A stretch of DNA of 64,000 nt from assembly GCA_008632985.1 (NCBI GenBank), contig QPGO01000022.1, positions 682,001-746,000 of the forward strand, given 5' to 3'. The notes under the pieces were generated by a model. That model saw only the letters and a list, made by a program, of their open reading frames with translations, was not told the DNA's origin and did not search any database. Source of the DNA: Psammoneis japonica. Taxonomy: Eukaryota. A program made the position numbers and the translations under genes. Positions 17,407-58,129 of the stretch are shown here, piece by piece. Numbering within the stretch: position 1 is the first letter of the stretch; every line of letters begins with the position of its first letter.

Positions 17407-17699
17407 TTCTTCCAGCTGCGTTGTTACGTACTGTAGATCTTGGGTTGTGATTGGCGACACTCTCAGCTCTCAGACCACAGACAACTAAGCCCTTCATTGA
17501 GAGGCTGTTTGCTGCTTGCGACGCAGTAATACGGTAGCACCGGTACTTGAGACCATGCGTGCATCCCGCGTCTGTGCTCGATCGCGAGAGCTCGCTTCTT
17601 TTTCGCGGTGTGCGTGAGCATCTGATCACCTTCCTCGCTCTGTCATTCTTTTGGAGAACGACAACAGCAAGTTCGAAAGTCGGGCTTAATCATTAAATT

Positions 17700-18900
17700 T
17701 CGGTCAGTGCAAACACCCAGGAGCACTGCAACCCAGTCAAGGAAATGTCAGCATGCAATGGGGAAACATTTTGCCACCACACCCACACCAGAGTGTGCAC
17801 CTGGTGAGACCACAAGTGCGCTGCCCAAAGAGAGAGCTTTTTCTGCACAAGCTCGGGGACTTCTGCCAGTGGTGCCACCACAAGCATGCTCTGCTTCAGC
17901 AGCACAGCAACACGTGGCAGTGCCAGAGCCTCCAGCATGGCACACCTGGGCCCTGGGCCTGACATGCCTCAATTGCGGCCTCCCAAGTGCTCTGGACAAT
18001 GTGTGCCAGCCGCTGTGCCACCACGAAACTCAACCCTCAATCCCCGCCAGTGGGGGGAGGTCACCCCAAGAGGTCACATGGGATTTTGCCCTGGCATTGA
18101 AGAGTGGTCAGTCCAGGCAGTGCAGTCCTCAGATGCTGCATGAACTCACCGCTGCTGGCTGCTGCACGGCCAAAGCTCAACGTTCTTGAAGGCAGCCATT
18201 GTTGAGCACCTGTGCAGGCCAGCAACCCAGGGCATGCACAAGGTCACACAGAAGAGTCTCAACCCACCCAGCTGCTGAGCATGCCAGGGAGGGGGCTGCT
18301 GCACAGCCATGGGGTGGGAGTGCCTGTGGTTTGGTAGAGAGATCAGAGATCTGGCGCACACTCAGCAGTGCCACACTGCTGAGAGTCTCTGACAGAGATC
18401 ACATGGACCTTGCACCTGCTGGCACTTGCATGTTGGGTGATGTGGCAATGTCAGCCTTTGTCATTGCAGCAGAACCCAAGGATGTGCTGGCACACGCCTG
18501 CATGTTGCCACCCAAGTGGCTGTTTTGCTGTGGAGATTTGTGCGCTCAACCCTGTGTTGGTGCCCTTTGTGGCTGTGTTGATGCTCTGATCTTAACCTTC
18601 TTGATTGCTCCCACGCACAACAGCTCAGTTCTTGCCATGAAATCAAATTGCTTTTTAAGACATCTTCTTGGACACTCATGACATGACCGTCTTCTTCAGA
18701 TCATCTGGCACCAGTTTCTTCATGACAACAGCAATGCTTGATGATTTCACTGTGATCGTTGCGTGTGTTTGTTTGTCCAAGCCTCGTTCGCATGTCGCAT
18801 GTTTCCTCTCTATGGAGCTTGCATGTCAAAGCACGGTGAAAAGGTTCTTGCTGTGGCCTTGGTTTCTGGAGGACTTCCTTGAACCAAGCTTGGTTTAAGA
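17700..18900. repeat. Degraded repeat island, TpA- and CpG-depleted, family not identified
   Basis: Abrupt compositional switch to TG/CA-rich sequence with very few TA; many overlapping Cys/His-rich spurious ORFs. Boundaries approximate. Confidence 0.6.
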
Positions 18901-22977: not shown

Positions 22978-23601
22978 TGTAGGGCTACGTAAGCTTAGAC
23001 AGTGGATTGGAAATTACTCGAGTCTCGCACGGATTTTCATTGTTGGATTCGACAGCTTCTATCTCGGTGTTTTATTACCGTACCCAGTGCGACGAAGGGC
23101 AAGCAGAATTTTTGTGTGGGCCTACTGAGAGTGAAGAGCGCAGAACGCTGCGGCAGTGGATGACAGACTTTCTTTTGACACCTGCTGTCCATCCCCTGCA
23201 GAGTGGGGTAAATAAGGTTACGCGCTCCGTGTGGAGCATTCCGTTCCCAAGAAGGATTTTTCGTAGCACAGCAGTTGCGAATTGGTTCCTCCTCTTTTAG
23301 GTGGAACTCTCTAGATCGAAGTCTGAAACCGAACGATTTTGGATTGCCGCCCTCGCTACTGTCAGAAAATAGAGCCATGACGATTGCCTGCACCAATCAT
23401 TTTGCTGCATTTTGCGCCGGGCGTTCGAACCAATTGTGAGATGTGACGGTTGTTTCGGTGCGCACTTTTGCGCGACCCACGTGACATGACCAACATGCGT
23501 TATGCAGTGCGTGGTGCTGGTTGTTTTGCTTCTGACCGTTCTGTCTTCTGTGGGGTTTCACGAGTTCATCTGTGCACATTGCTGTTGTCTAATTTGAGGT
23601 G

Positions 23602-23790
23602 CGGTGGCTTGAGCGAAAGTGCAATTGTGCGAAATTTACGCATTGACATGGTTGTCTTTGCTGAACAGTTGGTTGCAACTTGCGCCCATTCCAACATTTT
23701 TCCACGGTGGCTTAACTGAAAGTCTGAGTGCACGAAATTTACGCATTGATGCGGTTGTCTTTGCCAAACAGTTGGTTGCAACTCTCGCCC
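23602..23790 (+). repeat. Imperfect ~103-bp tandem duplication near the left end of the element
   Basis: cggtggctt...gaaatttacgcattga...gttgtctttg...aacagttggttgcaact occurs at ~23602 and ~23705. Confidence 0.75.
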
Positions 23791-23796
23791 TTTCCA

Positions 23797-24273
23797 TCAT
23801 TTCTGTCCGTGTTTGTTCCGTAGGATCCTTGCTTGCTCCTTCTCCTGCTCTGTTGCTCCCGATTCTTCCAGCTCCTTCTCGGTGAAAAACCTCCCACCAG
23901 TCGGTGGTGGTGCTGCCGCCCATGCTGCCTTTGGCTCCTCCATGGTTGAACCATCCCTGGGTGCGACCGTTGTTTCCACATGATGACTGTCCGCTGTTGT
24001 GTTGTCTTGCACAAGTGCAGAAGTGACATCAAAATTTCCCAAAGCAAGGTCAAACGCCGCTCTTGCTTCTTCCAAGGCAATCTCCTCTTCGTCTTCCTTG
24101 TTCATCAATGACTGAAGAAGTTCCGCACGTGTCTGCACCTTTTTCTTGTCCTCACCAGTTTTCTTTGGCTCGTCTGCCTTCTTTGTTTGTTGTTGCAAAT
24201 CCATGTTTTCTCCATTGCTGCATTTTCTGTGACGGTTGCGTTCGCGTTTCTTGGTTTGTTGGTTAAAATCCAT
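23797..24273 (-). CDS. Small charged hypothetical ORF inside the element
   Basis: 158-aa E/K/Q-rich ORF with ATG start; may be non-functional. Confidence 0.35.
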   Translation of the reverse strand: MDFNQQTKKRERNRHRKCSNGENMDLQQQTKKADEPKKTGEDKKKVQTRAELLQSLMNKEDEEEIALEEARAAFDLALGNFDVTSALVQDNTTADSHHVETTVAPRDGSTMEEPKAAWAAAPPPTGGRFFTEKELEESGATEQEKEQARILRNKHGQK

Positions 24274-24346
24274 TCGACGTTGTGTGACGTACGTGTGGAT
24301 TGCTGCGCATTGTGCTGATCTAATCGAAACATTTTATTTTACGAAA

Positions 24347-27300
24347 TTACCGCATTTTTACGGTTGGGGTCGCCAAATGGTTGTGCAGTGGTTGACATCC
24401 CAATCTAATGTTTGCACACTGCATTGACATTTCTGCGCACTGTTGCTGAGAAAAATGCGTGGCGCTTCTCTCCTTCATGAGTCTTGTCAAGGCTTCGCAG
24501 CCTTCTGGGACCTTGCATTTCCGGAGGTCCTTGCTCAGTGGCTTTCGCATGAACAGCCCTTCTCTGGTCTTTACTCTGGAGAGCACAACATGCACCCAAT
24601 TCTGAGTGTAGCTCCAAGAGTGTACAAACAACTGCGGGACTCCACTCCCTTGCAGTTTGTGCCCTGCAGTGGCGTTGTTGATGACAAACGGCAGCTGGGT
24701 TGCCTTCAGTTGGAAAGTGTGCCTTTGTTTGTCGCCTTCTTCTAAAATTAGGCTGGGCTTGGCAATGCAAGCCCTGAAAGCATTTGTTTTTGGCTCAACT
24801 AAAAACTTCGCGGGGTCGATGCTTTTGTTGCAGTGTTCCAATGCAACGTGGTCTACCTGGCTAGCAAGTGCAGCAGGAATGCTGATGTTGTTGTCTAGAG
24901 TTGCCAGTCTTGGTTCCTGTCCTGGTTTGAGAACGACCTTGTCAACAGTGGCTTGCGTTCCGTTTGCTTGACCGTTTGCTGCATTTTTGTTGAAAGGTGT
25001 CATGACTCTGCATCCTCTGTAAATTCGTAAGACTGGATCCATTCTTCCTGACTGCATGACAACGTCTCCTTCACCACAGTTGTTCCAGAAGCTGTTGTGA
25101 ACCGGAAATGGTTGGTAGAGTCTCGTGCCATTCTGCACCTGCAAGTCGTCACTGAAAATCAACATTGAGTCAAGCACGTCTCCATCTCTTCCATGCAGTG
25201 TTTCTGCTCTTTTTTTGAATGGGCCAGTGTCAATTGCATCTCTGTCCTCATTTGCGCACGCAGCACAGCGGAGGTCACTGGGCAGATCATCTTCGTTCTG
25301 AACTGCTCGTTCGTTGATGCACTCTGTGTCGTCAACTGCAATCTTGCCAGTGCGGAATCTCTCAAGCAGTTTTCCCCATGATGGATCGTCTTTAAGCCTG
25401 TGTACACCATGAAGTTCTATGTGGCAGTTGATCCACTCGTGAAACTCGGGACACACATCTTTGTGCAGTGGTTTCACTCCTTTTCTGACTGGTTCTAGTT
25501 GCCTGAGGTCAGCTGCAAAAACAATGTTCACACCACCGCACGGCTTGCTTAATTCGCCCTTCAATGCCGTTAAATTCTCATGGAGTTTTTCTAGTTCTCT
25601 CTTGCTTGCAAAAGAAATCTCGTCTACCACCAAAAGTCTCGTGTCTGACCATGCTTCAATTTGCTCTTTGGTCATTTGCTTTCTTCTCATGAGGCATGCA
25701 ACTCGGTGGATTGTGTCCCCTTTGAGAACAGTCGCAGCCACTCCGGTCAGTGCAGTTGTTCTGATTGTGCTTGTTGTGAACGGCTGCTCAATGAGCGAGC
25801 AGCACTCTCTTCCACATTCCACGACGAGGTCCATTGTGGTTGATTTGCCACTTCCACCTGCACCATGTAAAAAACACACAAGTTGCAATGTTCTGCGTCT
25901 TTGCACTTCCACGAGTTTCTTCAATCGGCGAAGGTTTGTTGCGAATTCGTGTCTGCCATTTCTCCTGTTGAGTCCATTGCGTGACGTCTCGTCTTGAAGA
26001 GCGTCTTGGCAGCAAGTGAGCACAAAGGTTCCTGCTAGAATTTCAAAGGCACGCTGCTGTTGCCTGTCCAGTCTTGCTTTCCTAGCCCAGTCTACGATGC
26101 TTGCTGCAGATCCGTTTGCTTGACGCACATCGACGTGTTCTTCCAAACCTGTCACATCCTCAAACGACCTTCTTGTTCTTTGCGTTCTAGTCAGCATCAC
26201 TCGAACAATGTCGTCTCTTGACAGTGGTCTGCTGTGGATGTGTTGTTGCACTCCTTCATTCTGGTCTTCGTCATCGGTGTCATCGCCGCCCTCTAGATTC
26301 TCAAAAAGTTGTCGTTCATTGACCTGGCTTTCCTCGTTTGGTGGGTCAGTGTGCATGTCTGCCAAGCATTTGCAACCACCCATGTGCAAACCTTTCTGTC
26401 TTGCACGTTTGCCGCTCAAATGCGCAGGAACAACTGCTTGGTCGCTCAACCCAATGTCATCGTCTTCTGTCTGCTCTGCCATTTCTTCCAAGAGTGCATC
26501 CAGCAGTTGACCTTGAACGGCGCCTGAAAGACCTTCTTCCTCGTCACTTTCGCAACAGTCAAACGCAACGTCAGCAGGTTTAAATTGCTCCGTCTTTCTT
26601 TGCAGATCGTCAGATGTACTTTTGAGACGAAGGCAGTTGGACTTAGCATCCTGCAGGTTCTGCAAGAAGTTCAAATCTTCCTCTGCAACAACACCGGCTG
26701 CTGCGGAGAGTTGGAATTCACGCAGACATGCATGGGTCATTGGTTTGAGTTCCGTCATTGTTCTGCAAGGCTCAAACAAGGCCAATGCCAACTTGCAGCA
26801 CAATTCTTTGTCTGGTGTTGTCGGTTGCTGCGGATCCATGAGGCAACTGCCAAACTTGGCTGCATCGGGAAAATCATGCTGAAGTGCTTTTGACAATCGC
26901 GGTTGCTGTCGCTGTTTGACACCTTGAAGAAACTTGTTCTTCGTTGAATTGCAAGATGGGTGCCTGTGCGCTCTGTTGTCGAACATCATCATGCCGTGTT
27001 CATTTTTCCTTGTGTTGCGAAGAACTTCGCACTCACTGAAAAACGCAAACGGACTGAGATTCTCCAGTGCTGTTGGACGACATGGGCAGTGCAAGGCCTG
27101 GCATTGGAAGAACGGTGTGTCGCCAAAATGGGCTACAGTCGCAGACACTTCGTCTCTTTCCAGTGTGCTGACAATGTCTTTCAAAGGGCACCATGCGGTC
27201 AAATGAGATTCGATGAAACGGCTTCCGTTCCTTGTTGTGTAAGACGCAAGTGGTGGTCCAATGACGTTCGTCTTGTCATGCGAGCAAGCACCCCACATGA

Positions 27301-30065
27301 GACGTCTGATTGCTTCCGATGCATCAGATGTGTGTTTCCGTAATTCCGTCGCTGTCCTGTTCGTAGTGTGAAGCACTTCGTCGTACGATGCAGTGTCATC
27401 TTTCTGGGTGTCTTTTAGGATGTGCTTGATCGTGCATTGAGCAGACGGTCCAGGCATCAATGAAGCAATGTTTGTGTTGCATGTCAGTTTTGATCTGCTT
27501 GTTGCAGGGCACGACACGTTTTGAAAAGCATCGCACTTTCTCCTCTTCGGAACAACTTCCTTCACGTGCCAATGCGCAAAAGTTCCATCCCAGCTGAACC
27601 ACTTCATCTGAGTGTCATCTGCATTCCTTGCCAAATTGTTTGGACACGAAGCAGCTGGTTGCCTGTGACGGCAGTCACCTGTCTGAGCTCCTCTCGTTTC
27701 CTTTTCCTTGACTGCGTGTCCAGTTCCTCGTGTGGGGTTTTTTTACGCATTTTACGCAACTCTGCGCATTTGGGAAAACACGACTTCGTAATGTGCATGT
27801 GATGGTTGTAAGCTGCGTCCAGCATGCATGCCTCTGTTGTCCCTTGCGGACCACTTCGCTGGCATTGCACACACATTGCTTTTAGTCGCTTTGCATGGTT
27901 GTCTGGACAGTGAGTCAGGCCAGGCACACGGTGCCGTGACTGTAAAAAGCTTTCTACAAACTCGACATTTGTCCAGTGCTTGGCGCAGTGACGACAATGA
28001 GCAAACATTCCGTTCTTCGACTGCTGGCCGTCTCCATGCCTCAGGTTTCTTGGCTGTTGGTTGTCCACTGCTTTTGGAGAGGTGCGACCATTTTTGGTGC
28101 TGTGCAGTCATGATCGAATGCTTCACGCAACGCGTTAGTGCTGAAGTCCTCGCTGCAGATTAATTCCGTGCTGCAGATCTTCTGAACTGTGTTGGCAAGG
28201 TGCTCAGCACCTTCGCATCGGATTTGTCTTGTTGGCGAATGCAGTTTCTCTCTTGCATTGTTGATGATGCGAACCAGATCTGCATGTGTCCGTGCACTGT
28301 CAGACGTCCCTGCTCCTCAACTGCGGCTAAAAATGTGGCTGGCCTGTCAATGTAGAAGTTAAAGTTTTCTCTTGGTTGGTTGGCACTCAGATCCCAACCC
28401 ACTGCCTCTTCCATTGCAATGTCAAACAAGCACTCGAATACAAAGGCTGTTAGACCGGGAAACTTTAGACGCAGTTCATTACGTTGCTCAGCCCTGCCAG
28501 CAAGAATTTCATCCGTCAGTTGTGTCACGTCTTCGTTTGGGTCCAGGATGACACCCGAGTGCAGTTGTGCAAGAAACGAATTTGCATCGTCCGGACTGAC
28601 GGTTAAGAAAATGCCACCCTGACCAAAATGATGCTGACAAGTTTCGGCCTTTCTCCTCATTTTCTTTGCTGCTTCGTTGCTGTGTGGCAGAGACGCAGAT
28701 GCAACGTCGAGTGCACGCAAAAAGTGGTGCCCGAGTCCACAATTTCTTCTCTCGCCCAAGTTGCGATCACAAACAGCTCCATCCACATCGTCCACTGTCA
28801 GTTCGTTTGCAAACTGTGCAGCCTGATTCTTGTCCCTGACTTTCCACCCTGCGCTCTGCAGCATCCTTTGCTTCATTGTCAAGTTGTGGCATGTTAAAAC
28901 GAAGAGCTGCTCGTGGAAGTGAGGCTGGGAAATCCGTGCTGAGTGGTCGGCACAGTGTGCAAGGTTGGTGCCATCTGCAAGACTTCCGTCTTTCTTCATT
29001 CTCGTCTCATTGATTCCTCCTCTGCCAAAAGGAAACTGCAGCAGACACGCGCCAATGAAGTTGTTGCCTTTGAAATCACTCGCAGATTCTTTAGACAACT
29101 GTGCTTGCACCTCTAAATCAAATCCGTTGGCAGTGGCTTCATGCACAAGATCTTTGAAGCAGTCCAGGTTGCGCTGACCACCGGTCGCAGGAGACATGGT
29201 TCCATCAGGAAAGCAAATGTGAAATGACTCTGAGGTCTCAATGTTGCATTTTCTCCTTCTTCTTCGCTGGTGCTGTCGCCAAGTGCGGGATTCCGCAGAT
29301 TGCGCCCAACTTCGTCTAGATTTGTCTGTTGGCACACCCACTCTTGGTCATGGCACAACAGCCATTCCATCGCCCTCAGCATGCAGTGCGTCCAATTCTG
29401 TTCTTTGAACGCGCAAGTTGTCTTTGCTCCGGAGTCATCTTTCCAGTCATCAGTGCAATCACATTCTGATGTAAATTCAGTGCGTCGAAGTGCACAACAG
29501 TTCTTACGATGCTTTGCATCTTGACTTTGTAGCGTGTCAGACTTCCCTGAAGCTTCTTCTGTTTGCCGCCAAGGCAACTGAAGCAGCATCCGCATGTTTT
29601 CACTGGTGTGAGCATTGCCAATTCTGCTTTGGTTAGAGACAACAGTTCATGCGGCGGGGTGCCGAAACAGCAGTTGTTCGCCATCGCGTACATTGGCATG
29701 ACGGCTCTTCCCAGGCTTCTCCGGCATTCGCTGCAGCAAGTGAATCCGTCGGCGCGTCGTCTGTCTTCCTGTGCTGCGTGTTGGGCGCGGGGAGAAAGCA
29801 GCAGGTCTTTGATCCAATCAGCATCTTCATGCTCTACAGTGCAGCAGGACTTGAGACGATCAGATGCGCTGTTCCAGTCTGAAGGAGTGAGTGAGTTTCT
29901 TGCTGATTCCAATGTTTTGAGCGGCAAGTGACACACTTCTCCAGGTTTCAGCAGAACGTCACAGACTGAACATGCGTGTGGTCTAAATTCTCCATCTCCA
30001 TGTAGACAAAGCATCTCAAACTTTCCATTGATTGCGTTGCAAACACAGGAGTTGACCTCGTCCAT
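24347..30065 (-). pseudogene. Helitron Rep-helicase (DUF6570-like region + HUH Rep + PIF1 helicase), frameshifted and hypermutated
   Basis: C..C...MPMYAMANN..FG.PP.EL..LT.AE; QFPFGRGG; FLTVSPDD; VEEQGRLTVHGH (HUH); QCTIKH at the YxxKY position; GAGGSGKS (Walker A), VVDEISF, FAADLRQLEPV, ATAGHKLQG, HVVLSRVKT. Confidence 0.9.
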
Positions 30066-30149
30066 TTTAATTTAAGCTGACACTTCAACTCAACAGATTT
30101 CAAGAAGTTGCTCAGCAAAAACAGTTGTTTTTTCAGTGGGATCACCGTG

Positions 30150-30790
30150 AAGCTGCGATCGGTGCCATCCAATCACCACAGCGATGTGTGTTTTGTCACC
30201 ACCTGCGGCACTGTGACTGGTGTCGTCCAGTCACCGCAGTTGTTCTGTCCAGTTGATCAACGAACCGCGTCGGTGCCACCCGTTCACCGCAGCGCTGTGT
30301 CATCTTCTCACAACCTGTGCAATCAGGTCGCTGTGAGCAGTCACCGCAGCCGAGTCAATCAGTTGCTTGACGAACTGCGTCGGTGCTGTCCGATCACTCC
30401 AGTGTTGTGTCGTGTTCTCACAACCTGTGCGATCAGGTCTCTGTGAGAGCTGCGACTGGTGTCATCCAGTCACCGCAGCTGAGCTTGTGCGTTGTCTCAC
30501 AACCTGCGTTACGAGGTGCAGTGCTGTGTTGTTTGCTCACAACCTGTGCAATCAGGTCGCTGTGAGAGCTGCGACTGGTGTCGTCCAGTCACCGCAGCCA
30601 AGTGAATCAGTTGCTTGACGAACTGCGTCGGTGCTGTCCGATCACCGCAGCGTTGTGTCGTGTTCTCACAACCTGTGCGATCAGGTCTCTGTGAGAGCTG
30701 CGACTGGTGTCGTCCAGTCACCGCAGCTGAGCTTGTGCGTCATCTCACAACCTGCGTTGCCAGGTCACTGTGAGAACTGAGAACTGCGAT
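30150..30790. repeat. Composite tandem repeat array upstream of (or within the N-terminus of) Rep-helicase
   Basis: Recurrent cacaacctgtgc(g/a)atcaggtc.ctgtgagagctgcgactggtgtcgtccagtcaccgcag and aatcagttgcttgacgaactgcgtcggtgctgtccgatca blocks. Confidence 0.85.
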
Positions 30791-30975
30791 CGGTGTGGCC
30801 CAATCACCGTAGTTGGATGCTTTTTGTTTCCCTTTGCGCAAAGGTTCTGTCACAAAAAAGTGAGACGAAAGTGTGCCTCTTTCACCTTGACGGAAGAGTG
30901 ACGTGTGCGTTCCTCCCACGTCCTTCTTCGCACCAGACGTGCGACATCCTGCTGGGTTTCGTCGATGTTGAACAT

Positions 30976-31077
30976 CCCATGGGACAAGATTTGGATCTTG
31001 TTCAAGTTGTTTCGACCATCTGCTCTGAACGTTCCATGGGGCAAGATTCGGATCTTGTTCAAGTTGTTTCGGCAATC
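30976..31077. repeat. 2 x 57-bp direct repeat (KQLEQDPNL.PW on the minus strand)
   Basis: ccatgg..caagatt.ggatcttgttcaagttgtttcg occurs twice, 57 bp apart. Confidence 0.8.
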
Positions 31078-31505
31078 TTGGTGGTGGGCGCAGCTTTGCG
31101 CAAATTCCGTAGAATCACGTTTCAACAAGTGGCGGGGCAGTTGAGTTAGTCGTGTGGGCAATGACAATGCGATTGACGTCATTCGTGTTTCCAAAGTGCG
31201 CGCAAATCCTCCAAATGGGTGATGGGCCCACCTAGCTACGCGGCAGTAAGGCTGAAATGCACACGAAGCACGGACGGAATTGCACGTGATGCCGCATTTT
31301 CAGCAAACTTGGTGCGACTTTGCGTGCTCCGATCCTAGCACCTGTTTTGTTCAAATTGAATCCATGCACCACTTGCAAGTGCTGACACCTGGAAGGTTGC
31401 CTTGTTGCAGTTCGACGTGTTTGGATCTAATTGCTGATGTTGCCAGTTCTCCTTGGTATGATGTGCGCAGCTCTGCTGGGTCTTTCTTGGCACTTCTGGA
31501 CGATC

Positions 31506-31569
31506 GCACTTTTTGTTCCCACAATTTCTCTCCGACTGCACTTTTTGTTCCCACAATTTCTCTCCGACT
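31506..31569 (+). repeat. Perfect 2 x 32-bp tandem repeat just before a cargo ATG
   Basis: gcactttttgttcccacaatttctctccgact twice. Confidence 0.9.
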
Positions 31570-31575
31570 GATTCG

Positions 31576-32447
31576 ATGGCACGCAAAAGAAACACAACGA
31601 CCTCCCCGGCTGCGAAAGCCAAAGTCGCCGAAACCAAACATAAGAAGGCAAAGACGAAGTTTTCTGATGCTCTGTTGAAGAAACTAAGTCCGCCCCGCAA
31701 GACCAACGGCTTGACCGACGACGACCTTAAACCGGAAGACCACCTTGCCAAGCACGGGTTCAAGCTTTCCAAATCCGCTGGTTCTGACGATGGCAGCCAT
31801 TCCGATGAGGACGCCCTGCTGCGCTGCGCCACCGTCACTGTCGGCCGCAAGAAAGGCGTCGTTTTTCGTCTTCAAGCCAAGAATCCCCTTTCAACCAATG
31901 TTTGGTCGGAGAAGGTTCTGTTTGATGACCTTCGCAGCAGGACTCCGTGGGCGGTTCAAGTCGGATTCCACCCTTACGCTGGCAGGTGGGTTCACGAAGG
32001 CGAGTTGCAGACGAACGCCAAGAACTGCGCCGTGCGTCTCTTCTTCATCTTCCTCGAAGAAGTCCCAACGAAGCTAAAGTGCACGGCCTCGGGAAGTGCA
32101 TTGCGAAGCAGCTCAACGATGACCCTGAGAACAACACCGAGGTCTTCGTTGACGACGACTTCTTCTGGATGAAGGATGCTGTTTGGTCCGAAGTGATCAG
32201 CAACGAGGCGGCGATTGCCGAGCTTCAGAAGGAAGGTGGTCAGTTTCACATCGGTTGGTGTGCCCAAAACAAGAACTTGCTTCACAGTTGCTTCTACGAG
32301 GGGTCGTTGCCTGTGGAACTCTGTCGTCTCATTGGAGCTCCGGCAGAAGAAGCTGGAGAAGAGGCCGACGATGATGTCGAGCTCAACTGCGAAGTTGACC
32401 TGAACGTCGATGACGACTTGGTGCTTCAGGACAGCGACGAAGACTGA
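31576..32447 (+). CDS. Element-borne unknown protein (basic N-terminus, acidic C-terminus), one frameshift
   Basis: MARKRN... in ORF 31513..32172 continues into ORF 31947..32447 if one C is added at gaagtcccaac (~32066); strongly codon-like third-position C/G. Confidence 0.6.
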
Positions 32448-32668
32448 GTTTTTTTTTTTTTGCCGGTGTTGTGTAAATTTGCACATGTTTGGAGAACTAA
32501 GTGTCGATTACAACTCAGCTTTCCTCTGTCTCTTCAAGTGTGCACCATCTCCGACGATAACTTTACGTTACCGCGAAGCGATGGCGAATTGAGTGGAGTA
32601 ACTAGCGTGTCACGTCTAGTGCAGTGACAGTAAAAAAACAGTCCAGTTGAGTTCTCAAGTAAAATTGG

Positions 32669-33520
32669 TTATTTCGCGACGGGCAAACACTTCCGTTCCA
32701 AGTGTGTCGGAGTGGGACGTCGCATGTGCTGGCTGGTTGACTGAGAAGTCTCCTCTTTCTTGGTGTGCTTGTGGAAGACGAGATGTTTCACGTCTCCGCT
32801 GTGCCACAAAAAGTCGCCATCATGGTAATCCGCCGTGAACGACTCGTACATCCACTCTTCCGCGTACGACGCGAACAGCGGATCTAGCGCCACCATCACG
32901 GTCCCAGCACGACACAACTTCGAAAGCATCGCCTCTGCCTTCTGCTGTGTGTTCTTGTCGTCGACCATGCGGGAGTTGCAGTTGTTGAAGAACACCTTGA
33001 GCCCTTTCTTTTTCCACAAAGGAGCCAGCCCCTTGTCCAAGAATGACTTGTTGATCAACTCTAACCCACCGTTCGAGCGAAGGCCAGCACGATGAGCCCA
33101 ACGTGCAGCCTCTTGGTGACGATCGTGGTCGGCCTCGATGCTCACCACGGTGCAACGGCGACGAAGTAACTTGAGCCCGATGCTGGGTCCGGCAACTCCC
33201 CCGCCCATGTCGACAGATGTGTCGCAGGTGTGATTCACGCCAAGAAGGCGTTCGTTCAAAAACACTTCGCTGCTCAAAGCGAAGCCAACTTCGCCGCCGT
33301 GCGAAGATCCGCTTCCGTCTCCGGAGACACGCCTGCTCTGGAACGCGGAGTCCGGAGCCGTTTGATGACAAAACTCCCCAACACTTCTGTGACGATGGTT
33401 CATCGTATCCAACCTTGTGGCAACATCAACCTTGCTTGCAGCGGGTTCGACCAGACGTCGCGTTTCCAAACCAAACTGTGACGTGCGCAGAATGCGTAAA
33501 ATTGCCGTCGCGCCCTCCAT
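32669..33520 (-). CDS. DOT1-like class I SAM-dependent methyltransferase (element cargo)
   Basis: Ordered motifs HGGE (cf. YGE), VDMGGGVA (motif I), VSIEAD, KSFLD (cf. GDFL), VFFNN (cf. IFVNN), AGTVMVALDPL, then W and FHKH (cf. YY). Confidence 0.6.
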   Translation of the reverse strand: MEGATAILRILRTSQFGLETRRLVEPAASKVDVATRLDTMNHRHRSVGEFCHQTAPDSAFQSRRVSGDGSGSSHGGEVGFALSSEVFLNERLLGVNHTCDTSVDMGGGVAGPSIGLKLLRRRCTVVSIEADHDRHQEAARWAHRAGLRSNGGLELINKSFLDKGLAPLWKKKGLKVFFNNCNSRMVDDKNTQQKAEAMLSKLCRAGTVMVALDPLFASYAEEWMYESFTADYHDGDFLWHSGDVKHLVFHKHTKKEETSQSTSQHMRRPTPTHLERKCLPVAK

Positions 33521-33837
33521 GCACGCGAAATTTTCAAACGCGGCGTGCCACCTCTACCTGCGCATGGAGCGACGCATGAAGTCATTTTAAACAGACATGT
33601 AGACGCGTTGAAATAATAAGACGCCTTCAGGCGGTAAAATTTGTTTTGAATCTCGACCTGCTTCTCATCGCTGCCGTACTTGCATGTCCGTGTAATTCAA
33701 ACGCACGAGCTGGCACGGCACGTGACGCACTTCTACGCGAGAACTCGCACTGAGATTGCCGTGGGATGATCCTCCCTCTGCGGAGACAACAACAACGCGA
33801 CAACACTTCCGTCATCACATTTTGAACACATTTCAAA

Positions 33838-35283
33838 TTGAGACACACCATGTCGCAACTACCTCGTGCCTCGCTGCGTCATCCTGCCAACGACAAGCAC
33901 TTGTCGCGATCGAGTTACAGCCGGTCTCGACAGTGTGGGGGTTTGGGACGTGCAGCTCGCAGCCCGACAACAAGCAAGTGCTTCTCGCGATTAGGTTTCG
34001 ACCCCACTCCCCTGGAGTCCGCCGGTCCCTGTCAACAGAGTTTTGCTTTGGGTGCTCTTGAGGCACCGGAAAGCAGACACATCTCTCGATTAGGTTTTGA
34101 CCCCACTCCCCTGGAGTCCGCCGGTCCCTGTCGACAGAGTTCTGCTTTGGGCACTGTTGAGACGACGGTGACAGTGTCAAGCAGCGGAACGTTTGCCGGT
34201 GAGTTCGCACACACGTTCTCTGTGAACACCGCATTGTCAATGCGCACCAGGATGTGCGAGCACGTGTCAAGGGCTCAACCGCCACTTCGCAAGGCCCACC
34301 GCAGCCGCAGGCGAATCCGCAGCCGCGCCAGCAGGAAAACATCCAAGATTGCTCGCCTCGTTCCACTCGCACCGTGCGCCACTGAGAGTCTCTCCATGCA
34401 CTGCGTGGCCAACCGCACTCCAGTTTGTGACGGCGACTACACTCAGCCTGCACCACCTTGTCTTGCTGACTTTGACTTTGCCGGATTGGCTCCTCTGGTC
34501 GTCTGTGACCCTGTGCTCGATCTGAAGCCTTTCTTTGGCTTGGACGGTTGCCGCTGCGACAACACCTGCACCCTGCTGCCACGTTCTGCTGTGGTGTTCA
34601 GCTCCCCCAACCCAGCAGAACTAGTTGCTCAGCACCGAGCGCTCGAAGCACTAGAATGCTGCACCGCCCAGTCCACCGTGCGCGGCAAACAACGTGTTGC
34701 CTTCATGGAGACTGACAGGAGCAAGCATTCCACGATTGGCCTGGCTGCCACGAGAGACGCTCGAATTTCTTGCAAGCAGCCTGGCACAGCCGACCAACAC
34801 ACTCACCACCTCACCAGACTTCTTTCACGCATGGAGCACCTTGTCAATGAGTGCGTGGACTGTGCCATCCTCAAGGGTGTCGCTTGTGTCAAAAAGTTTC
34901 ACAACTGGAAATCCCTGGTGCGGTCAGATGGCATTTTCTCCTCTCTGGCGGCTGGGCGCAATGTCTTCCTCAACGCCCATCGGGACGAGGACTTCTTCCT
35001 GTCAGTGGTCACCGTGGTGGGAGTCCCTCCGTCCGGCAGCCACACCATGAATGACGGGATTGTGGTGTGCTTCTGCTTCCCTGCCAAAGGCATCTCTGTT
35101 GCACTCCGTCTTGGTGATGTCATCATTTTTAACCCCACCAAGCACCACTGCATCTCCAGCAGGACAAACTCAAACGACGAGTTCTTCTGCGTGTCTCTCC
35201 ACCTGAAGAGTGCTGCAGTGGGCAAGAACAACAATTCAATCCCCCTTTCTCTAGAGGAAGAGACCATTCTCAGGCGACTGTGA
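33838..35283 (+). CDS. 2OG-Fe(II) dioxygenase, TET/JBP-like (element cargo)
   Basis: NAHRDED (HxD), FCFP..GI.VALRLGDVIIFNP.KHH (distal His), VSLHLK (cf. SLxY); in-frame 99-bp duplication at 33989/34088 in the N-terminal part. Confidence 0.65.
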   Translation: MRHTMSQLPRASLRHPANDKHLSRSSYSRSRQCGGLGRAARSPTTSKCFSRLGFDPTPLESAGPCQQSFALGALEAPESRHISRLGFDPTPLESAGPCRQSSALGTVETTVTVSSSGTFAGEFAHTFSVNTALSMRTRMCEHVSRAQPPLRKAHRSRRRIRSRASRKTSKIARLVPLAPCATESLSMHCVANRTPVCDGDYTQPAPPCLADFDFAGLAPLVVCDPVLDLKPFFGLDGCRCDNTCTLLPRSAVVFSSPNPAELVAQHRALEALECCTAQSTVRGKQRVAFMETDRSKHSTIGLAATRDARISCKQPGTADQHTHHLTRLLSRMEHLVNECVDCAILKGVACVKKFHNWKSLVRSDGIFSSLAAGRNVFLNAHRDEDFFLSVVTVVGVPPSGSHTMNDGIVVCFCFPAKGISVALRLGDVIIFNPTKHHCISSRTNSNDEFFCVSLHLKSAAVGKNNNSIPLSLEEETILRRL

Positions 35284-35488
35284 CAGTGCAAAATAACTTG
35301 CTAAATTTGTGTAAATTTGCTGACTTTCTGCACTCAGGCGACTGTGCAGGTGCCTGCTAATTTGCCAGATGTGCGCAAATTTACCGACTTTCTGTTCTTC
35401 CTCGTCCCCATTTTTCAAACCACAACTGGGGCTACGCCTTTCCAACTGATGCTGCAGTTTCGCTGAAAAACACCAACACACTGTGCCA

Positions 35489-36973
35489 CTAATTTACAGA
35501 GCAAACTACACGGCAGACATTTTGCCAGACGCAGAGCTTCTCCTCCCTGACTTGGGGAGTGGGCGCGATTTCTTCTTCCGATTCATGGCACCCGACGTCG
35601 CCTTCCTCTTCTTCTTCTTCTTCTCCATTTGTCCAAATTGCATTTGCAGAGAAATTCCTCCCCGGGCATGATTTGCTTCGTGACTGCCAAGCACCCGTCA
35701 TTGTAGAACTCGCAGTTGTTGTCCGCGTGTTGGCTTGCCTTGATCTTCTTCTTGTCCTTGAACAACTCGGTGGCATCGTTCACGTGGTGCATTCCGAGGC
35801 AGAGTGGATGGGAATTCTTGTTCCCTGGACCACTAAAATCAAGCGGTTTTGGCTCCACTGTGACGCAGCAGCCCTCGCTGTCACGGATGGTGGAGCAGCA
35901 CACGCTGTGGTCTTCTCCAAACTTGCTGTCGTGGTCGTACCACGAGTGGCTCCTCGTCGTTCCGGGCACCCTGGGGCCCACGTAGATTCCAACCGCACTG
36001 CCTTTCTGGAACTGGCGCAAAGCAAAAAAACCAACACCTGCGCCCCTCCGTTGCGATGCGTGCAGCTCGCCCACCTCCACCTCCTTGGGGCCTGCGGAGC
36101 GAACGGACTTTTCAAGGCAAAACAACGCAGGTTGGATGACACGGCGCCTCATCCAAATGTGCACACTTCTGCACTTACTCTCTTCACAAGGTGGACCAGT
36201 GCGAGCAACCACCCCGCTTCGAAAGCCTCGACGGCGGTCTTGAACACTTCGTTGCTCTTCGGCGTGAGTCTGGGATGCCCCTCTCGCCGACTTCCATGCG
36301 GTGCCTCCACACCCACTTGCAGTGTTCGCCGTGAGCATTCGCGACGGCTTCAGGGTCGCTCCTGATGCACCCCAGTTCTCCCAGCGCGGGGCACCAGAGG
36401 TCGGGATTGTTCGGCGCATCCTTCATCAGGCACATGGACTCCTGGAAATTGTCGGATTTTTCGTGCCGCAACACCCAGTCCCACAAGTCGAATGACGGTT
36501 CGGTGGGGTCCGGAAATTGATTTCCTTCTTCTTCCTCTTCCGCCGTTGCTTTCGCGACCCCTTTGGCGCGGGCTTGGCTGCCTCCTCGCTTTTGCCGCTG
36601 CAAAAAGACAGGACCTCCGGTTTCACAAAGGTGGCCTGATCACCCACCAACTCGATCTTGCACCGGCCTCAAGCAGCTGCTCGGCGGTGTGACCCAGCTG
36701 CTGTGCTTCATTCCAACCACAAATTTGAAAGGTTGGCTCCGGCGGCTCGGCTTTCTCCCTCTTTTCAGTTTGGGACTGCGCCGGCTTCTCCGACATCCTT
36801 GCGCGTTCGGACTCGACGGACACACCCTCGGCACTTCCCTCGGCACTTCCCTTGGCACCGAGTGCAGTCATGGCAACTGCCGCCGCGCCTTCGGTGCCCG
36901 TGAGTTCTGCCGCGGCTTCTGGAGCTGTCACATCCTCTGCTTTGCCAGATGCAACGATGTTGTCCTCCGCCAT
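35489..36973 (-). pseudogene. SET-domain protein (element cargo), frameshifted, terminal Tyr read as Cys
   Basis: GAGVGFFALRQF.KG..VGIYVG, PLCLGMHHVND, IMPGEEFLCKCN; N-terminal pieces in ORFs 36623..37213, 36426..36650 and 36184..36603. Confidence 0.72.
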
Positions 36974-37637
36974 TCTGACGCCGTGATGACAGAGGTGCAC
37001 TGACTGCTGTGTGTGGTGTGCTGTGTTCCAGCCGTTGGCGATCCACATCCTTCTGCGCGCGTAAACGCACGACACTTCGTACCGAATTCGACGTGCCTGA
37101 CGCACCCTACACTGCCTGCCGCGTGCTTCCGACTTCCTCAACGTCCCGCCTCCACCACTTTCAACTTGTCCTCGGGACGTGGCGCGTCTGCACCTGTCTA
37201 CGTCTGTCTGCACTACGGCACTACAGCGCCCTGCATCAAAACTTCATTAATGTTTGTTTTTTGCTTTCTTTTCCTTTTCTCTTCTTCTTCCATCTGGCTG
37301 GGAGGAACTGCTGGATAGCCTGGGTATTTTATGAAATGCTGTAGAAATCTGTTTGTCACACTAGTTTGCGTACTTTAGGCTCTAGAGAGTAGCTCTAGCC
37401 TTAGGTCATGCCGCGACTCTCCAATTCGTGCATTCCCGATCTTGCTCCGTGGGAATATCGTACGCTCCATCCCCGTCGTTTGGCATCTTCAATTGCGCAA
37501 AGAATCTTTGACACGTCCAATCCAACCGACACCCATGACCAACTCGGACCAACAATAAGATGGCTGCGTCCAGTCTGCAGCAAACACCGGAATATCTATC
37601 TTCACGAGAAGATGATGGGTGCACCGGTGCCCCATAA

Positions 37638-42639: not shown

Positions 42640-45600
42640 GTTGCACACTTTTTCTGTGCAAGGGTGTAAAAAGTGGTGTCAAAACATCCAATTCTGAGTG
42701 CACAAATGCTGATCTGAAATGACCATCATGTTGTGTCAGACCATGTGTGAAAAGCTTCCTTCATGAAGCAGGCCACCTCCCTCATGGCACAGGCTGGTGA
42801 CACTGCAACTGCAGCATCCAAAGAGCTCTGACAATGGCAACTGCATTGAGCAAGCAATGAATGGTGCTCGTGAAGAAATCCAAGCTGGAGCACAGATGCT
42901 CTCCTGCAGAGAAACAAAGGGATGGTGGAGGACAACACCAGATTGGTTGCCTGTTGTTTCTTGTTGACAGGTCCAGGGCTTGAGCTGTGGGAAAACACTT
43001 GGCAGCACAAGCACAGTGCTGGATTTGATCTTTGCTCCTGAATCTCAACATTTGACCCACCGTTTTTGCTGGCTCCAACATGTGTGTGGTGTGCTCACAG
43101 TTCACAGCAGCAGATGCCCAAGCTGTTCAAGGGTGCCCTTTCTTGTTTGAGCACCTTTTAATCACCACAGGTGTTGGAACATTGTTGGGTTGCAACACAG
43201 ACAATGTTCTTGAAGTGAAAGTGACACTGACGATTGTTGGTGACATGGCAAATCCAAGTTCACAGCTTGTCATGAAAGTGGGTGTCATGCTCACTTTACA
43301 GCTTCTGCACCAGGACAACACAGCAATTGGTGCAGAGCAGTGTTTGCAATCCATGCGGTGAGCTTGGGGATGATTGGCAAGACTGGCACAAATCAGTCAC
43401 TGGCAAGCCATGAAATCCCAACACAGAAGCTAAAAAGGCTGGCTGGGAGGTCATCAAGAGTCCAAAGGTGCAGCTTGTGTCAGTGGATTGTGGCAAACAC
43501 ACAAGCTGGCTGGATGAAGTGAGCACCAAAGAGACAGTCTCTGGAGGACCTTGCTGTGAGGAAGCTTCAAGGGCCTGCTGGCTGAAAGAGGGTGTGGTGA
43601 ACTTGTGTCAAACTGGAAGAAACATCAACATGGGTGAGGACACAGCTGAGCATTGAAGCACAAAAGATTTGAAGGAGTGGATGTGACACCATTGCTGGGT
43701 TGGGTCAAAACAGCAGGCAGATGCTGGAATGCATGGAGACTGCAAGGAAAAAGGTGAGCATGTCAGAAGAGTGTTCAGGCTGGAGATGCAAGCACTTGTG
43801 TCTTAGAACAAAAAACTGGAGGAGCCTGAACATCCATTGGGCACAATCATGTCAGAGAAGGACAAGGTGATCTGGGGCAAGGGATGCAACCAACACATGA
43901 AACTGGGCACAATCTGCAAGATGCAGAAGGCAATGGCATTTGATGCAATTGTGGGACAGTGCATGAAGACCATCCATTGCACAAGGTTGAAGAAGGAGTG
44001 ATGGAGTTTGCAAAGTTGCAAAGGAGGGGGTGTGGTTGTGCTGTTGAAAATTCTCAAGTCGTTCTTGTTTGATGCAATCAAGAGAGAATCTGCTTGCATG
44101 TTCAGACTCTGTTCAGGGTTGAAAGCAGTTGGCACTCATTCGTCATCATGACAAAGAGGAGAGGCACTTCAAGATTGTTGCAACTGTCTCACAAGAGTTG
44201 TTGAGATTGTGGAAGGGTTCTGTGGCAGAGTCATTGCAGAAGAAATCACCAAGAAGAAGATGTTTTCAGCACGGATTCTGATGGCACCAAGAAGAAAGAG
44301 AGGAACAAGTTGCTGGCTGGCAGCACCGCTCATGGAAGGTGCCAAAAATGTTGGCATGTCTTGAAGGACTCACATCGGCAGTTGACACTGGGGGTTGACA
44401 ATTGCCCCAATTTGGCCAAGGAGGCACCAATGGTGTTGGACACATGTGGGGTCAACAAGAAAATTGAGGGAGCAAGCTTTGTGCAACATGAGAAGAAGCA
44501 GATCAAATGCTGGAAATGCAACAACATCTGGCATGTGAAGAAGGATTGTCCTTTGCTCAATGATGACAATGATCATTTGTCAGCAGAGTCAGATGAAGTG
44601 AGCCATGGGTCTCAATGAAGCAGTCGACATGGCACAGGGCAGCAGCATGAGCTCCAACTGCCATCCTCCTTGGGCAAGCATGACACATCATGAGGTCAAC
44701 CAATTGACAGCTTCTTGTGCAAAGGAGTGCGTTGAAACATTGGGGTGCAGTGCAGTTTTGGGAGCACAGACAGACAATGTCAAAGTGAAGAAAGCAACAC
44801 TGACAATTGTTGGTGATGTGGTGAATCCAAGATTGCAGCAGCTCAGCCATGAAAGTGGGTCTCATGCTCACTTTTTGGCTTTTGCACCAGGACAACATGA
44901 CCATCAATGCAGAGCAGTGTTTGCAATCCATGCGGTGAGACCAGGGATCAGCAAGACTGGTGTAGATGAGCTGGCGCCATGAAATCCCAACAACAGGAGT
45001 CAGCAGGAGCAAAAAGGGAAACAAAGAAATGTGAAGGAGAAACATGCTGCATTGTCAGCTTGCCAGTTGCAACAACTGCTTTGCCCCCAGCTGCAAGTTT
45101 GGCTTGTGTCATTGTTGCCACCACTTGCTGACCCACTGTTGCATTTTTTCAGGGCATTTTAGTTGTCTTTCAAAGCCAATTGTGTTTCCTGTTGGTTCAC
45201 ACAGCAGCACTTTGCAACTGGGGGTGCAATGAGCACACCCTCTGTTTCTAAATTGCTGGCACAGATCCCCTGCAATCTGCAATGATGTCCTCACACATGC
45301 CCCAGCTGTGCTTGCCAGCTCTCCTTGTCCCTCTCCACCTCCCAAACAACAAGAACAATTTTGACATCACTCCCATCAGAGTCTTCCTGCTGCTGTGGTG
45401 TCAACATGTGGTGTGCTTGTTTTGGCAACCTGCTTGACCTTTGGCTGAATCCTCAGCCCATGGACCCAAAAACACATCCACAAGAGGGAGCAGATGCAAA
45501 GTTTTGGCAATCACAGAGCAACAAACAGACAATGTGTGCCATTGATGTGTGGCGCACATTGCTGTGAAGTGCAAAAGTTGTTTGGAGTTTGAGAAAAAAG

Positions 45601-49593: not shown

Positions 49594-49680
49594 GAAGTTG
49601 TGGTTGCAGAGACATGGAAAGGTCGACGCATAATCAAATTTTAAAATGACAGTTGGATTTGCGGCAGAAAACCAAGCAAA

Positions 49681-56117: not shown

Positions 56118-58129
56118 GGTGAGAGCGCAAACTATTGAATGAACCGCTCGCAGCGCTCGAGCACAGCGCCATGAGCTATCAGCTATCAGAATCCAGAAAA
56201 AGGGTACCTTACAGTTAATATAATGAATGAATGAAGCGTTGTCATAAATGGTCTGTTGTCGTCCGCGAGTTGTCTACTTCGGCACGTTCGGCAGACATCA
56301 TGACGAAGCCAAGCAAAAGCAGACGATGACGCCTCCTCTAACACTTTCTTCTACACAGACTCAGTGCTTCCACACATGGGCTCTTCGTTTCTCTGACAGT
56401 GAATGCCAACATCACCTCATTGCTTTTTTGTGCTTGAAAAGACCTGCACACATGACTGCCTGGTGGCAGTGTGGTGTGTGGCTGGTGCTGCTGCTGGTGT
56501 GCGGGCTGCTGGTGTGTGCTTGAGTCTTTTTGTTTTGATGGCAAACACTGGCATCACCATGAAATTTTTCAATTAAAAAGTCCTGCTCACACCACCCATG
56601 TGGGCCATGTGAAGATTTCTTGCCAGGAGCCACAGGAGCCACATCATGTCAGACACAATGTGCTGCAGCTTGCTCACGGCACAAAGCCCACCACCAGCAA
56701 AGTCGCGATCTGAGGATGTCTGGCCATTTCCACACCACGGGATTTTTTCTCCTGAATGCAAAAACGTCCTGTCTGACATGCATCATTTCCCATTGACAGC
56801 TGCACAAACAATGTCTGCAAGTCACATTTTCCACTGGTTGGGTGGGGCCCGTTGATGCTTGCACAAACAACATCTGCGAGCCACTCTTCCCCACTGGTTG
56901 GGTGGGAAAACTCTTGCCTGCAGTGGCTGCCATGACCTGTTTGACATGCAGCCCATTTTGCTGGCAGGGACAGGAAAAACCTTGGTCAATCACTTTGTTG
57001 CTGCAAATCATTTTTGCAAGTGCGCTTTGTCGGAGCATCCTCTGTCTGCAATCATCAATTGTCCAAACCAATGACCTCACCAGTTTGATTTGTGTGGTCA
57101 CCAGCACAGCCTTTTCTTTGCTCTCTTTTTGGGTTTCTTTCTCTGTTGGCCCCACCTGCCACAGCATTTTGTTTCTCTTGTTGCTCCTTGTCATCACACC
57201 CAGCCCCTCATCTCTGCTGTTCCAACGATGACCACACACACTCTCCTGTGGTTGCTCTTGCATCTTGTCATTGTTTCCATTTTGCCGCTGTTGTGTGATC
57301 ACTCTCCCAACCTTCCAGCAAGCTTTTTGCTGCTGTCTGCTTCCAACCCATTCTTCCAGCCTTCCAAGCCTTCTTGTTTTCTCCATGCATTTGTCATCAC
57401 CTTTGCCTCTTTCCCGTTGCTTGAGTGAGGCTGTCACACTCACAAGTGCCCCCCCCCCCCTTTTTTTTGAAAAATGGTGCAATGATGACAACGGCACAAA
57501 GCACTCATGTGTTCAATTTTTTTGTGAGTTGCTGAGTGTGGCAGCAGTGCTGTGACTCACCAGATGATGAAGCTGTGGAGGACAAGGAAGACAATTTTGT
57601 AGGTTGATTGCTTGTGCATTGCATTTTGGCATTTTTGTGGCAGCTGCACTGGCTGCTCCTCTGAGCTCAATTCAGCATGCCAGAATTTTCAATTTTTTTG
57701 TGATTCTCATTTGTTTTTGCATGCCAGCATGTGATTTGAAAACCAGCTTTTTTCAATGATGTTGCATGCAAAAAGAAGCCAAGCATGTCAGACACATGAT
57801 GCACAGTCAACCATGAGCATGTGTGTTGACCTTCCACTCAACAAAGTTTTCAAGTGGAGCACCACCCAACTCAGCACCAAATTGCAGAAAGCCAAAGTTT
57901 TTTCAACCTTCCAAGACTGGAAACCTGTCATGCATGGCAATGTTGCTCAGGACTCCACTGCACAACAATTTGCCAATCCTTGCTCAGGAGTGGCACTGCT
58001 CACAACACAACTCATCAACTTGTCAACCCTTTCTCAGGAGCAGCGCTGCTCACACAACAAGTCATCAACCTTTGCTCAGGATGCATTGAATGGGGCTGTT
58101 CTGTTCCCAAAACAGCACATGGCACTGAG

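Follow-up and report, generated by a model that had tools for sequence, protein, structure and literature searches.

How does a transposon come to lose most of one dinucleotide, TpA, while the host genes that adjoin it are spared? This question is raised by a stretch of 64,000 bases (contig QPGO01000022.1, positions 682,001 to 746,000, assembly GCA_008632985.1, deposited as Psammoneis japonica), the whole of which was analysed and is called the window below. The element at 23.4–37.3 kb of the window is a Helitron, with an HUH Rep nuclease region and a PIF1-type helicase. An earlier reading made from the letters alone (the sequence-only reading) proposed that this transposon had been rewritten by A>G changes at TpA on both DNA strands. 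The analysis described here supports that proposal: the Helitron lost its TA because A changed to G (equivalently T to C) at TpA steps of either strand, and these transitions rewrote and killed the transposon. Host-driven, TpA-specific A:T>G:C hypermutation of mobile DNA is the best explanation, and a likely one.

The depletion itself is easily seen from the base composition. Between 23390 and 37300, 155 TA were counted against 782.7 expected, an observed/expected ratio (o/e) of 0.20. The same stretch has 811 CG against 936.6 expected (o/e 0.87), and TG and CA are raised to o/e values of 1.42 and 1.46. In the 36,337 bases of other host DNA in the window, the values are 0.61 for TA, 0.99 for CG and 1.12 for TG/CA, and sliding 2-kb windows of host DNA give a TpA o/e of about 0.5–0.75 with a CpG o/e of about 1.0. 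Across the window, TG/CA goes up where TA goes down, and the AA and AT steps persist. On the left, TA occurs every 20–40 bases as far as 23370 and is sparse thereafter. On the right, there is no TA at all over 36176–37062, and a host-like TA density resumes from 37316. The depleted zone therefore runs from about 23371–23500 to about 37060, with an intermediate TA density in the final 240 bases up to the repeat edge (about 37300). Both edges resolve to about 100 bases, and the adjoining genes, which are ordinary host genes, are spared. The contrast between TpA-rich flanks and a TpA-poor element, which the sequence-only reading had noticed, is confirmed by these values. The residual TpA of the Helitron is clustered at 24264–24359, 32474–32670, 33497–33734 and 35252–35507, between the long frames, and mostly as TAA, TAC or TAG.

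The identity of the element rests on Pfam matches on the minus strand, from 30071 to 24350, to Helitron_like_N (E = 1.2e-9), PIF1 (E = 1.1e-13) and DUF6570. The Rep/helicase gene is split into four overlapping frames, which are collinear with single-frame homologues of about 1900 amino acids at 30–45% identity. The HUH motif of the Rep nuclease (HGHMQIW) and the Walker A motif are intact. Both catalytic Tyr residues of the nuclease are gone, as the QYxFKY of the family reads QCTIKH in the window, with one Tyr replaced by Cys and the other by His. In the PIF1 part, the family motif NWVYVVLSRV has become NWVHVVLSRV. This Tyr-to-His exchange was rightly pointed out by the sequence-only reading, as was the scarcity of Tyr in the 1095-amino-acid open reading frame (ORF; 24347–27634, minus strand), for which it gave about five Tyr with an excess of Cys and His; our count is 5 Tyr, 43 Cys and 40 His. 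In the corresponding 1131-amino-acid stop-to-stop frame, Tyr makes up 0.4% of the residues versus 1.96–4.94% in 68 homologues. Judged from these residues, the copy is predicted to be enzymatically dead, its enzymes having been killed by the rewriting of TpA. The frames nevertheless stay long, because a change of A>G or T>C at TpA never creates a stop codon. The termini typical of Helitrons (5'-TC ... CTRR-3', a 3' hairpin and insertion at an AT step) could not be placed on reading both ends of the element, where a terminal CTAG would itself have undergone mutation. Degenerate direct or tandem repeats (72–82% identity) are present within the Helitron at 23602–23802 and 30122–30765; some of the differences between the repeat copies are TG<->CA doublets and changes at CpG.

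The direction of the change was determined by aligning the four Rep/helicase frames of the window to 34 full-length homologues. Among the 27 columns where at least 70% of the homologues have Tyr, Tyr is retained in the window at 4, whereas Cys stands at 14 and His at 4, which is an evident excess of A>G at TA. At the 11 columns where at least 90% have Tyr, it has 2 Tyr, 6 Cys and 2 His. The other conserved columns were largely kept, with Arg retained at 33 of 35 and identity at 424 of all 528 conserved columns. Replacements of Val by Ala, of Ile by Met or Thr and of Leu by Pro were found as well. Together with Tyr>Cys and Tyr>His, these are the exact outcomes of TA>TG or TA>CA in TAY (Y, pyrimidine), GTA, ATA and CTA codons. 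A leave-one-out control showed that the homologues retain Tyr at 13–24 of 22–26 columns, with 0–1 Cys each. The one exception was P0056, a full-length database homologue of 1864 amino acids. In this protein, 3 of the conserved Tyr columns are occupied by Cys and 3 by His, and it may represent a copy with light hypermutation that was annotated as a gene. Among the protein database matches, nearly all are intact, and P0056 is the only one found to be partly affected. Most homologues have a normal TA content and keep their Tyr. The loss of TpA is derived and mutational, and it is specific for this dinucleotide.

The same erasure recurs in unrelated environmental Helitrons. Scanning of metagenome contigs with the Rep/helicase alignment gave 80 loci, of which 58 have a TA o/e of at least 0.5. 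Seven fall below 0.3, namely L003 (0.02), L080 (0.05), L069 (0.07), L007 (0.09), L033 (0.13), L060 (0.23) and L023 (0.28). A sharp edge was again found in L032, in which the Helitron part has a TA o/e of 0.02 and the adjoining flank is normal. The most complete example is L003, with a single uninterrupted frame of 1882 amino acids and a TA o/e of 0.02 over 6.3 kb of a 7.8-kb contig. Of 24 conserved Tyr columns in L003, just 1 still reads Tyr, with Cys at 14 and His at 6. Its Arg columns are preserved in 34 of 35 cases, as are 328 of 349 other conserved columns (333 of 350 in the intact relative L004). Since the columns of L003 are otherwise kept, its TpA must have been converted almost fully before other change had time to accumulate. 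Among the 80 loci, none was both intact and closely related to L003 or the window copy, the best match being about 70% identical over 500–670 bases. A closer pair is formed by L025 and L039, which come from two metagenomes of different projects and share 95.7% identity across 3878 bases. Erasure is partial in either locus, L025 being further along. They differ by 44 TA<->TG/CA singles, 10 TG<->CA doublets (0.65 expected), 27 CpG singles, 24 other transitions and 45 transversions, and the erasure may still be running in a natural population.

Copies of the Helitron were compared using contigs from one public sequencing run (coded X1), which may be the source sample of the window and for which the technology is not on record. 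The depth of the X1 contigs is about 55–67 over the flanking host genes versus a summed 2700–5600 over the Helitron, and it drops to about 55 near 37.3 kb, where a single-copy contig begins at 37301. The depth ratio suggests that the family has dozens of related copies, a summed depth not being a copy number. Among these copies, 143 of 178 variant places are transitions. A breakdown of 40 of the 181 variant rows, which correspond to 33 events, gave 6 TG<->CA doublets, 11 CpG<->TpG/CpA singles, 3 TA<->TG/CA singles, 5 other transitions and 8 transversions. A TG<->CA doublet is what is expected where two copies resolved the same ancestral TA differently, one of them to TG and the other to CA. 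Its chance frequency was estimated by shuffling the columns of aligned paralogous segments. For one paralogous pair within the window (involving the block at 56.3–64.0 kb), 23 doublets were found versus 4.8 ± 2.0 in the shuffles (maximum 13 in 1000), and for a second pair (in the block at 42.7–47.5 kb), 8 versus 0.72 expected. Since copies differ by such doublets, each copy resolved the ancestral TA on its own, and both strands were hit.

The order of the hits along the gene was also recorded, by calling Tyr>Cys and Ile>Met as sense and Tyr>His, Val>Ala, Ile>Thr and Leu>Pro/Ser as antisense. The 20 sense and 11 antisense hits of L003 form 17 runs (15.3 expected), and the 20 sense and 18 antisense hits of the window form 16 runs (20.0 expected). 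The two kinds of hit switch about as frequently as expected by chance, no strand-coordinated clustering was seen, and there is thus no sign of an editing pass that moves processively along a single strand. The erased sequence is real: X1 contigs of 338–1944 bases match 41952–46877 at 0–1 differences each, with a k-mer depth of about 60, and reproduce the TA/CG-free block rather than restoring the TA bases, with the reservation made above about the origin of X1.

Is there a preference among TpA sites? When the Tyr codons of seven erased loci were pooled, the preceding base was a purine for 16 of the 19 Tyr>His changes, compared with 23 of the 48 Tyr>Cys changes (Fisher p = 0.012). On the strand in which the A is altered, either outcome corresponds to T-A-pyrimidine. 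The TA that remain in the Helitron point the same way. Only 12 of the 155 contain TAT on either strand (ATAA, ATAC, ATAG, ATAT) versus 45% of host TA, and GTAA, CTAA, TTAA and CTAG are enriched 1.7- to 2.5-fold. Most residual Tyr codons of the Helitron are TAC, which is consistent with TAT being hit before TAC, although the numbers are small. These counts are read as a putative order of 3' neighbours of TAT > TAC > TAG/TAA (ATA > GTA on the other strand), which would be a preference and not a requirement.

The Helitron is not the only erased DNA in the window. Three further blocks, which were absent from the sequence-only reading, are more extreme (Table 1), with TG and CA o/e values of 1.8–1.96. 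A 680-base segment is common to the blocks at 42.7–47.5 and 56.3–64.0 kb at 69% identity. The X1 depth over the former is about 60–67, which is the level of single-copy genes, with parts at 200–370. None of the 77 stop-to-stop frames of at least 85 amino acids in the three blocks gave a Pfam match at E <= 0.001. A DUF6044 match in the block at 56.3–64.0 kb (E = 0.0079, 15.1 bits versus a cut-off of 27) was dismissed as chance-level, and a retrotransposon label for the TA/CG-free blocks was not adopted, since Pfam gives it no support. By eye, a Cys/His spacing at 44480–44560 (plus strand) resembles a CCHC zinc knuckle, for which Pfam likewise gives no support.

Besides TpA, the blocks lack CpG. 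Across loci, the two losses vary independently: the TA/CG o/e values are 0.20/0.87 for this Helitron, 0.28/1.24 for L023, 0.43/0.02 for L042 and 0.67/0.48 for the intact L002. The loss of CpG is therefore separable from that of TpA. In the three blocks, which would be older, the CpG loss would be due to a second process, for which the decay of methylated cytosine is the simplest account on established knowledge.

An unmutated control is provided by a duplication of host DNA that carries an MFS transporter and neighbouring genes. Its two copies differ at 23 positions, 4 of which are TA-type and none a doublet, and their TA o/e is about 0.63–0.66; they are not hypermutated. Between the two copies lies an array of 75-base tandem repeats (51362–51822). 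The stretch at 47690–47960, which borders the neighbouring block and immediately precedes the first MFS gene copy, is dense in CpG and has no TpA; it may be a GC-rich promoter and not part of the erased block. The sulfatase gene next to the Helitron has its best named relatives in the raphid pennate diatoms Epithemia, Nitzschia and Seminavis (56–59% identity), from which the host is probably a pennate diatom.

The Helitron contains two further frames besides the Rep/helicase gene. One of them is a possible SET-domain gene captured by the Helitron. Its C-terminus reads ...GEEFLCKC, so that the terminal Tyr>Cys change in a SET domain claimed by the sequence-only reading is plausible, but its Pfam score is below the threshold (Table 1), and the claim goes no further than that. 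The other, the accessory ORF, to which the VVYF>VVCF change of the sequence-only reading belongs, is a genuine conserved protein and is taken up below, where it bears on the chemistry.

Table 1. Features of the window, with coordinates counted from its first base
Feature	Position	Strand	Basis or remark
Hypermutated Helitron copy	23371..37300	-	Pfam Helitron_like_N, PIF1, DUF6570; TA o/e 0.20; TA positions; depth drop
Rep/helicase gene, four overlapping frames	29379-30071, 28163-29347, 27607-28107, 24350-27742 (overall 24350..30071)	-	Pfam; homologue alignment
Accessory ORF, 485 amino acids	33826..35280	+	C-terminal half conserved in 3 database proteins, 35-46% identity
Possible SET-domain ORF	35586..36422	-	Pfam SET E 0.078, 13.8 bits versus cut-off 22.4, profile positions 1-103 of 105
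Short block nearly without TpA, CpG-poor	17695..18810		17751-18750: TA 3 (o/e 0.06), CG 15 (o/e 0.20); no Pfam match
Block nearly without TpA and CpG	42668..47500		42750-47250: TA 10 (o/e 0.03), CG 19 (o/e 0.07); no Pfam match
Block nearly without TpA and CpG, extending past the window end	56353..64000		56250-64000: TA 22 (o/e 0.04), CG 34 (o/e 0.08)
Two-copy host segmental duplication, MFS transporter and neighbouring genes	47924-51268 and 52835-56133	+	about 97% identity, 3.3 kb

What agent could rewrite DNA in this manner? In the explanation preferred here, the host would subject silenced mobile or foreign DNA to a mutation that turns the T:A pair of 5'-TpA-3' into C:G. Either strand would be hit, so that each TA would end as TG or CA. 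Near saturation, as on this Helitron family, TAY (Tyr) codons would become TGY (Cys) or CAY (His), GTA would become GCA, ATA would become ATG or ACA and CTA would become CCA, and the Rep nuclease would be deprived of both catalytic Tyr. The agent would be a host enzyme, the leading candidate being a DNA adenine deaminase of the ADAT2/TadA kind that makes inosine, as was also proposed for the alga Bigelowiella natans, and its role would presumably be one of defence. Adenine deamination is the favoured chemistry, which is unproven. The host mutator put forward by the sequence-only reading is still something we infer, but it now has a direct experimental precedent in Bigelowiella (10.64898/2026.01.13.699255, discussed below). 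The description of the process as repeat-targeted fared less well than that of A>G hypermutation, which stands, because the 3.3-kb host duplication was spared and parts of the erased blocks are at single-copy depth. These blocks may once have been repeated. Targeting of foreign or silenced DNA fits the data at least as well as targeting by homology.

Several points weigh against this explanation. The evidence consists of end states, with neither an enzyme nor a base modification nor a de novo mutation among the observations. X1, by which the sequence is confirmed, may derive from the very sample that was assembled, with no technology on record, and its breakdown into events comes from 40 of the 181 variant rows. 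The context preference is drawn from 67 Tyr codons at seven loci, two of which are related, and from residual sites with assumed ancestral frequencies; other partly mutated loci follow the trend weakly. The host of the window is assigned by one gene, the sulfatase. Moreover, sequence does not distinguish a damaged A (deamination) from a damaged T (e.g., oxidation).

This last point keeps one alternative live, improbable as we judge it to be: the T of TpA, preferably in ATA, would be oxidised, e.g., to 5-hydroxymethyl- or 5-formyluracil by a TET/JBP-type dioxygenase, and would mispair with G to give T>C. The outcome in sequence would be the same as that of adenine deamination, and the difference would lie in the chemistry and the enzyme; the signature is strand-symmetric, so that T>C at TpA fits it as well as A>G does. 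There are reports that 5-hydroxymethyluracil in dinoflagellate DNA has a bias towards TpA and TpC, and that 5-formyluracil can mispair with G. The accessory ORF of the Helitron, which lies on the strand opposite to Rep/helicase, has NAHxDxDF ... FNPxxxHC motifs, and its HxD...H pattern is conserved in four sequences and resembles that of 2-oxoglutarate-Fe(II) dioxygenases. However, the TET-like label attached to it by the sequence-only reading found no support. Neither the ORF nor its homologues, of which just three were found (P0189–P0191), has a Pfam domain, a profile search gave no match in the PDB, and the AlphaFold model has a predicted local distance difference test (pLDDT) score of 29. 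In addition, L003 is fully erased with only the Rep/helicase gene and three short antisense frames within it, the non-Helitron blocks are erased as well, and the targets in Bigelowiella are viruses. An element-encoded enzyme is therefore unlikely as the cause.

Helitrons move via a single-stranded circle, which brings to mind an editing of this rolling-circle intermediate, once per copy, in the way that APOBEC3 acts on retroviral cDNA. The independent differences between copies would suit such editing, but we consider it very unlikely, since a single-stranded intermediate exposes one strand and the hits fall on both, interleaved and with no deficit of runs (20/11 in L003 and 20/18 in the window). 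Blocks without Helitron features are erased too, and in Bigelowiella the mutations arise in resident integrated DNA during clonal growth. Least credible of all is that the pattern is an artefact of misread modified bases or a native poverty in TA brought about by selection for TA avoidance. Base modifications can give systematic miscalls on some platforms, and the confirming run may share its sample with the assembly. Nevertheless, X1 contigs at a depth of about 60 reproduce the TA-free block with 0–1 differences over 1.4–1.9 kb, and the signature is present in 7 of 80 loci from separate metagenome assemblies. Selection for TA avoidance was rejected, as invariant and catalytic Tyr residues were replaced and most relatives (58 of 80 at a TA o/e of at least 0.5) are TA-normal. 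Also rejected were GC-biased gene conversion, which is not specific for a dinucleotide, and RNA editing by ADAR, for which a Helitron offers no RNA intermediate.

How does host-driven hypermutation at TpA compare with known systems? To our knowledge, before 2026 all known eukaryotic systems that mutate invading DNA made C>T changes, i.e., repeat-induced point mutation (RIP), APOBEC enzymes and the decay of methylated cytosine. Fungal RIP resembles the present process in that saturating, context-specific transitions kill transposon copies independently and leave host genes clean. However, RIP changes C>T, mainly CpA>TpA, and creates TpA, whereas the process seen here destroys TpA and gains CpA/TpG. 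RIP also needs duplication and a premeiotic stage, whereas a 97%-identical host duplication of 3.3 kb is untouched here, though the Helitron is multi-copy. TpA erasure is therefore not a member of the RIP family, its direction being the opposite. The decay of methyl-CpG fits the CpG loss of the three blocks and the CpG<->TpG/CpA polymorphism among Helitron copies, but it cannot remove TpA, and the two losses are decoupled across loci. The sequence-only reading was thus correct in setting aside both RIP and methylated-cytosine decay as causes of the TA loss. Adenosine deaminases (ADAR on double-stranded RNA; ADAT2/3 and TadA on transfer RNA) share the conversion of A to inosine, which is read as G, and a preference for a 5' U or T; the substrate here must, however, be chromosomal DNA, on both strands. 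The 3' preference of T > C > purine would be unlike that known for ADARs. Diatoms have DNMT4 enzymes of unknown function that are related to fungal RID (PMC9998398), and nothing links them to TpA erasure.

The closest parallel is that of Mettrop et al. (bioRxiv 10.64898/2026.01.13.699255, version of 14 Apr 2026), whose main text reports TpA-specific hypermutation in Bigelowiella natans, with DNA of giant viruses and virophages integrated in the genome as its target. Of 302 mutations that arose during mutation accumulation, 231 lay within two regions of integrated viral DNA, at about 6e-7 per site per generation, which is about 1000-fold over background; nearly all were A>G or T>C, all of those at TpA, and such mutations occurred in only 11 of 15 lines. 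Coding sequences that are poor in TpA and rich in CpA and TpG were enriched in transposase and reverse-transcriptase domains. The authors propose an ADAT2-like DNA adenine deaminase and cite the action of ADAT2 on DNA in amphioxus and Trypanosoma. The change is the same as the one described here, TpA to TpG or CpA on both strands and confined to foreign DNA, with loss of TpA and gain of CpA/TpG. Repeats are not needed there, the hypermutated insert of a nucleocytoplasmic large DNA virus (NCLDV) being single copy, and this is compatible with the Helitron and the blocks of the window. There are also differences. The host here is a probable diatom (a stramenopile), whereas Bigelowiella is a chlorarachniophyte (a rhizarian); the targets are a multi-copy Helitron and unclassified blocks rather than viral inserts; the TA o/e of 0.02–0.20 is near saturation, whereas the Rho value of the NCLDV region is 0.45; and only end states are available here, whereas the Bigelowiella study measured de novo rates.

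What was found here is the same kind of process as that of Bigelowiella, in a second lineage, on transposons and at saturation. The sequence-only reading had taken the process to be undescribed. This is true of diatoms as far as our full-text literature searches go, in which no description of TpA hypermutation in diatoms was found, but for Bigelowiella a description appeared in 2026. The available text of PMC9258296 and PMC3145265 contains nothing bearing on TpA hypermutation. In a term search of the main text of the Bigelowiella preprint, neither diatoms, stramenopiles and Helitrons nor CpG and trinucleotide context came up; its supplementary tables lay outside that search, and doublets were not among the terms. 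The present analysis contributes the preference for the 3' neighbour, the TG<->CA doublets and the finding that TpA and CpG are lost separately. As end-state material, the near-complete erasure, the independence of copies and a 3' preference that any candidate enzyme must reproduce are new relative to the preprint.

The process is thus not confined to one strain and may be widespread in major phytoplankton lineages. A TA o/e below 0.3 together with a TG/CA o/e above 1.4 offers a genomic marker, both for genome surveys and for finding the responsible gene by co-distribution. There is also a consequence for annotation. Since these changes never make stops, the long frames of erased elements stay open, and annotation will list them as genes even though the elements are dead. 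A bolder proposal, which we regard as possible but rather doubtful, is that diatoms, and with Bigelowiella perhaps much of the group of stramenopiles, alveolates and Rhizaria (SAR), have an enzyme dedicated to the deamination of adenine at 5'-TAY-3' in the double-stranded DNA of chromosomes, with silenced mobile and viral DNA as its target. A natural DNA adenine editor of this kind would interest the base-editing field. If the proposal is true, such an A:T-to-G:C editor would be a second, independently evolved counterpart of fungal RIP, and the erased Helitrons in environmental metagenomes would be the fossil record of that enzyme.

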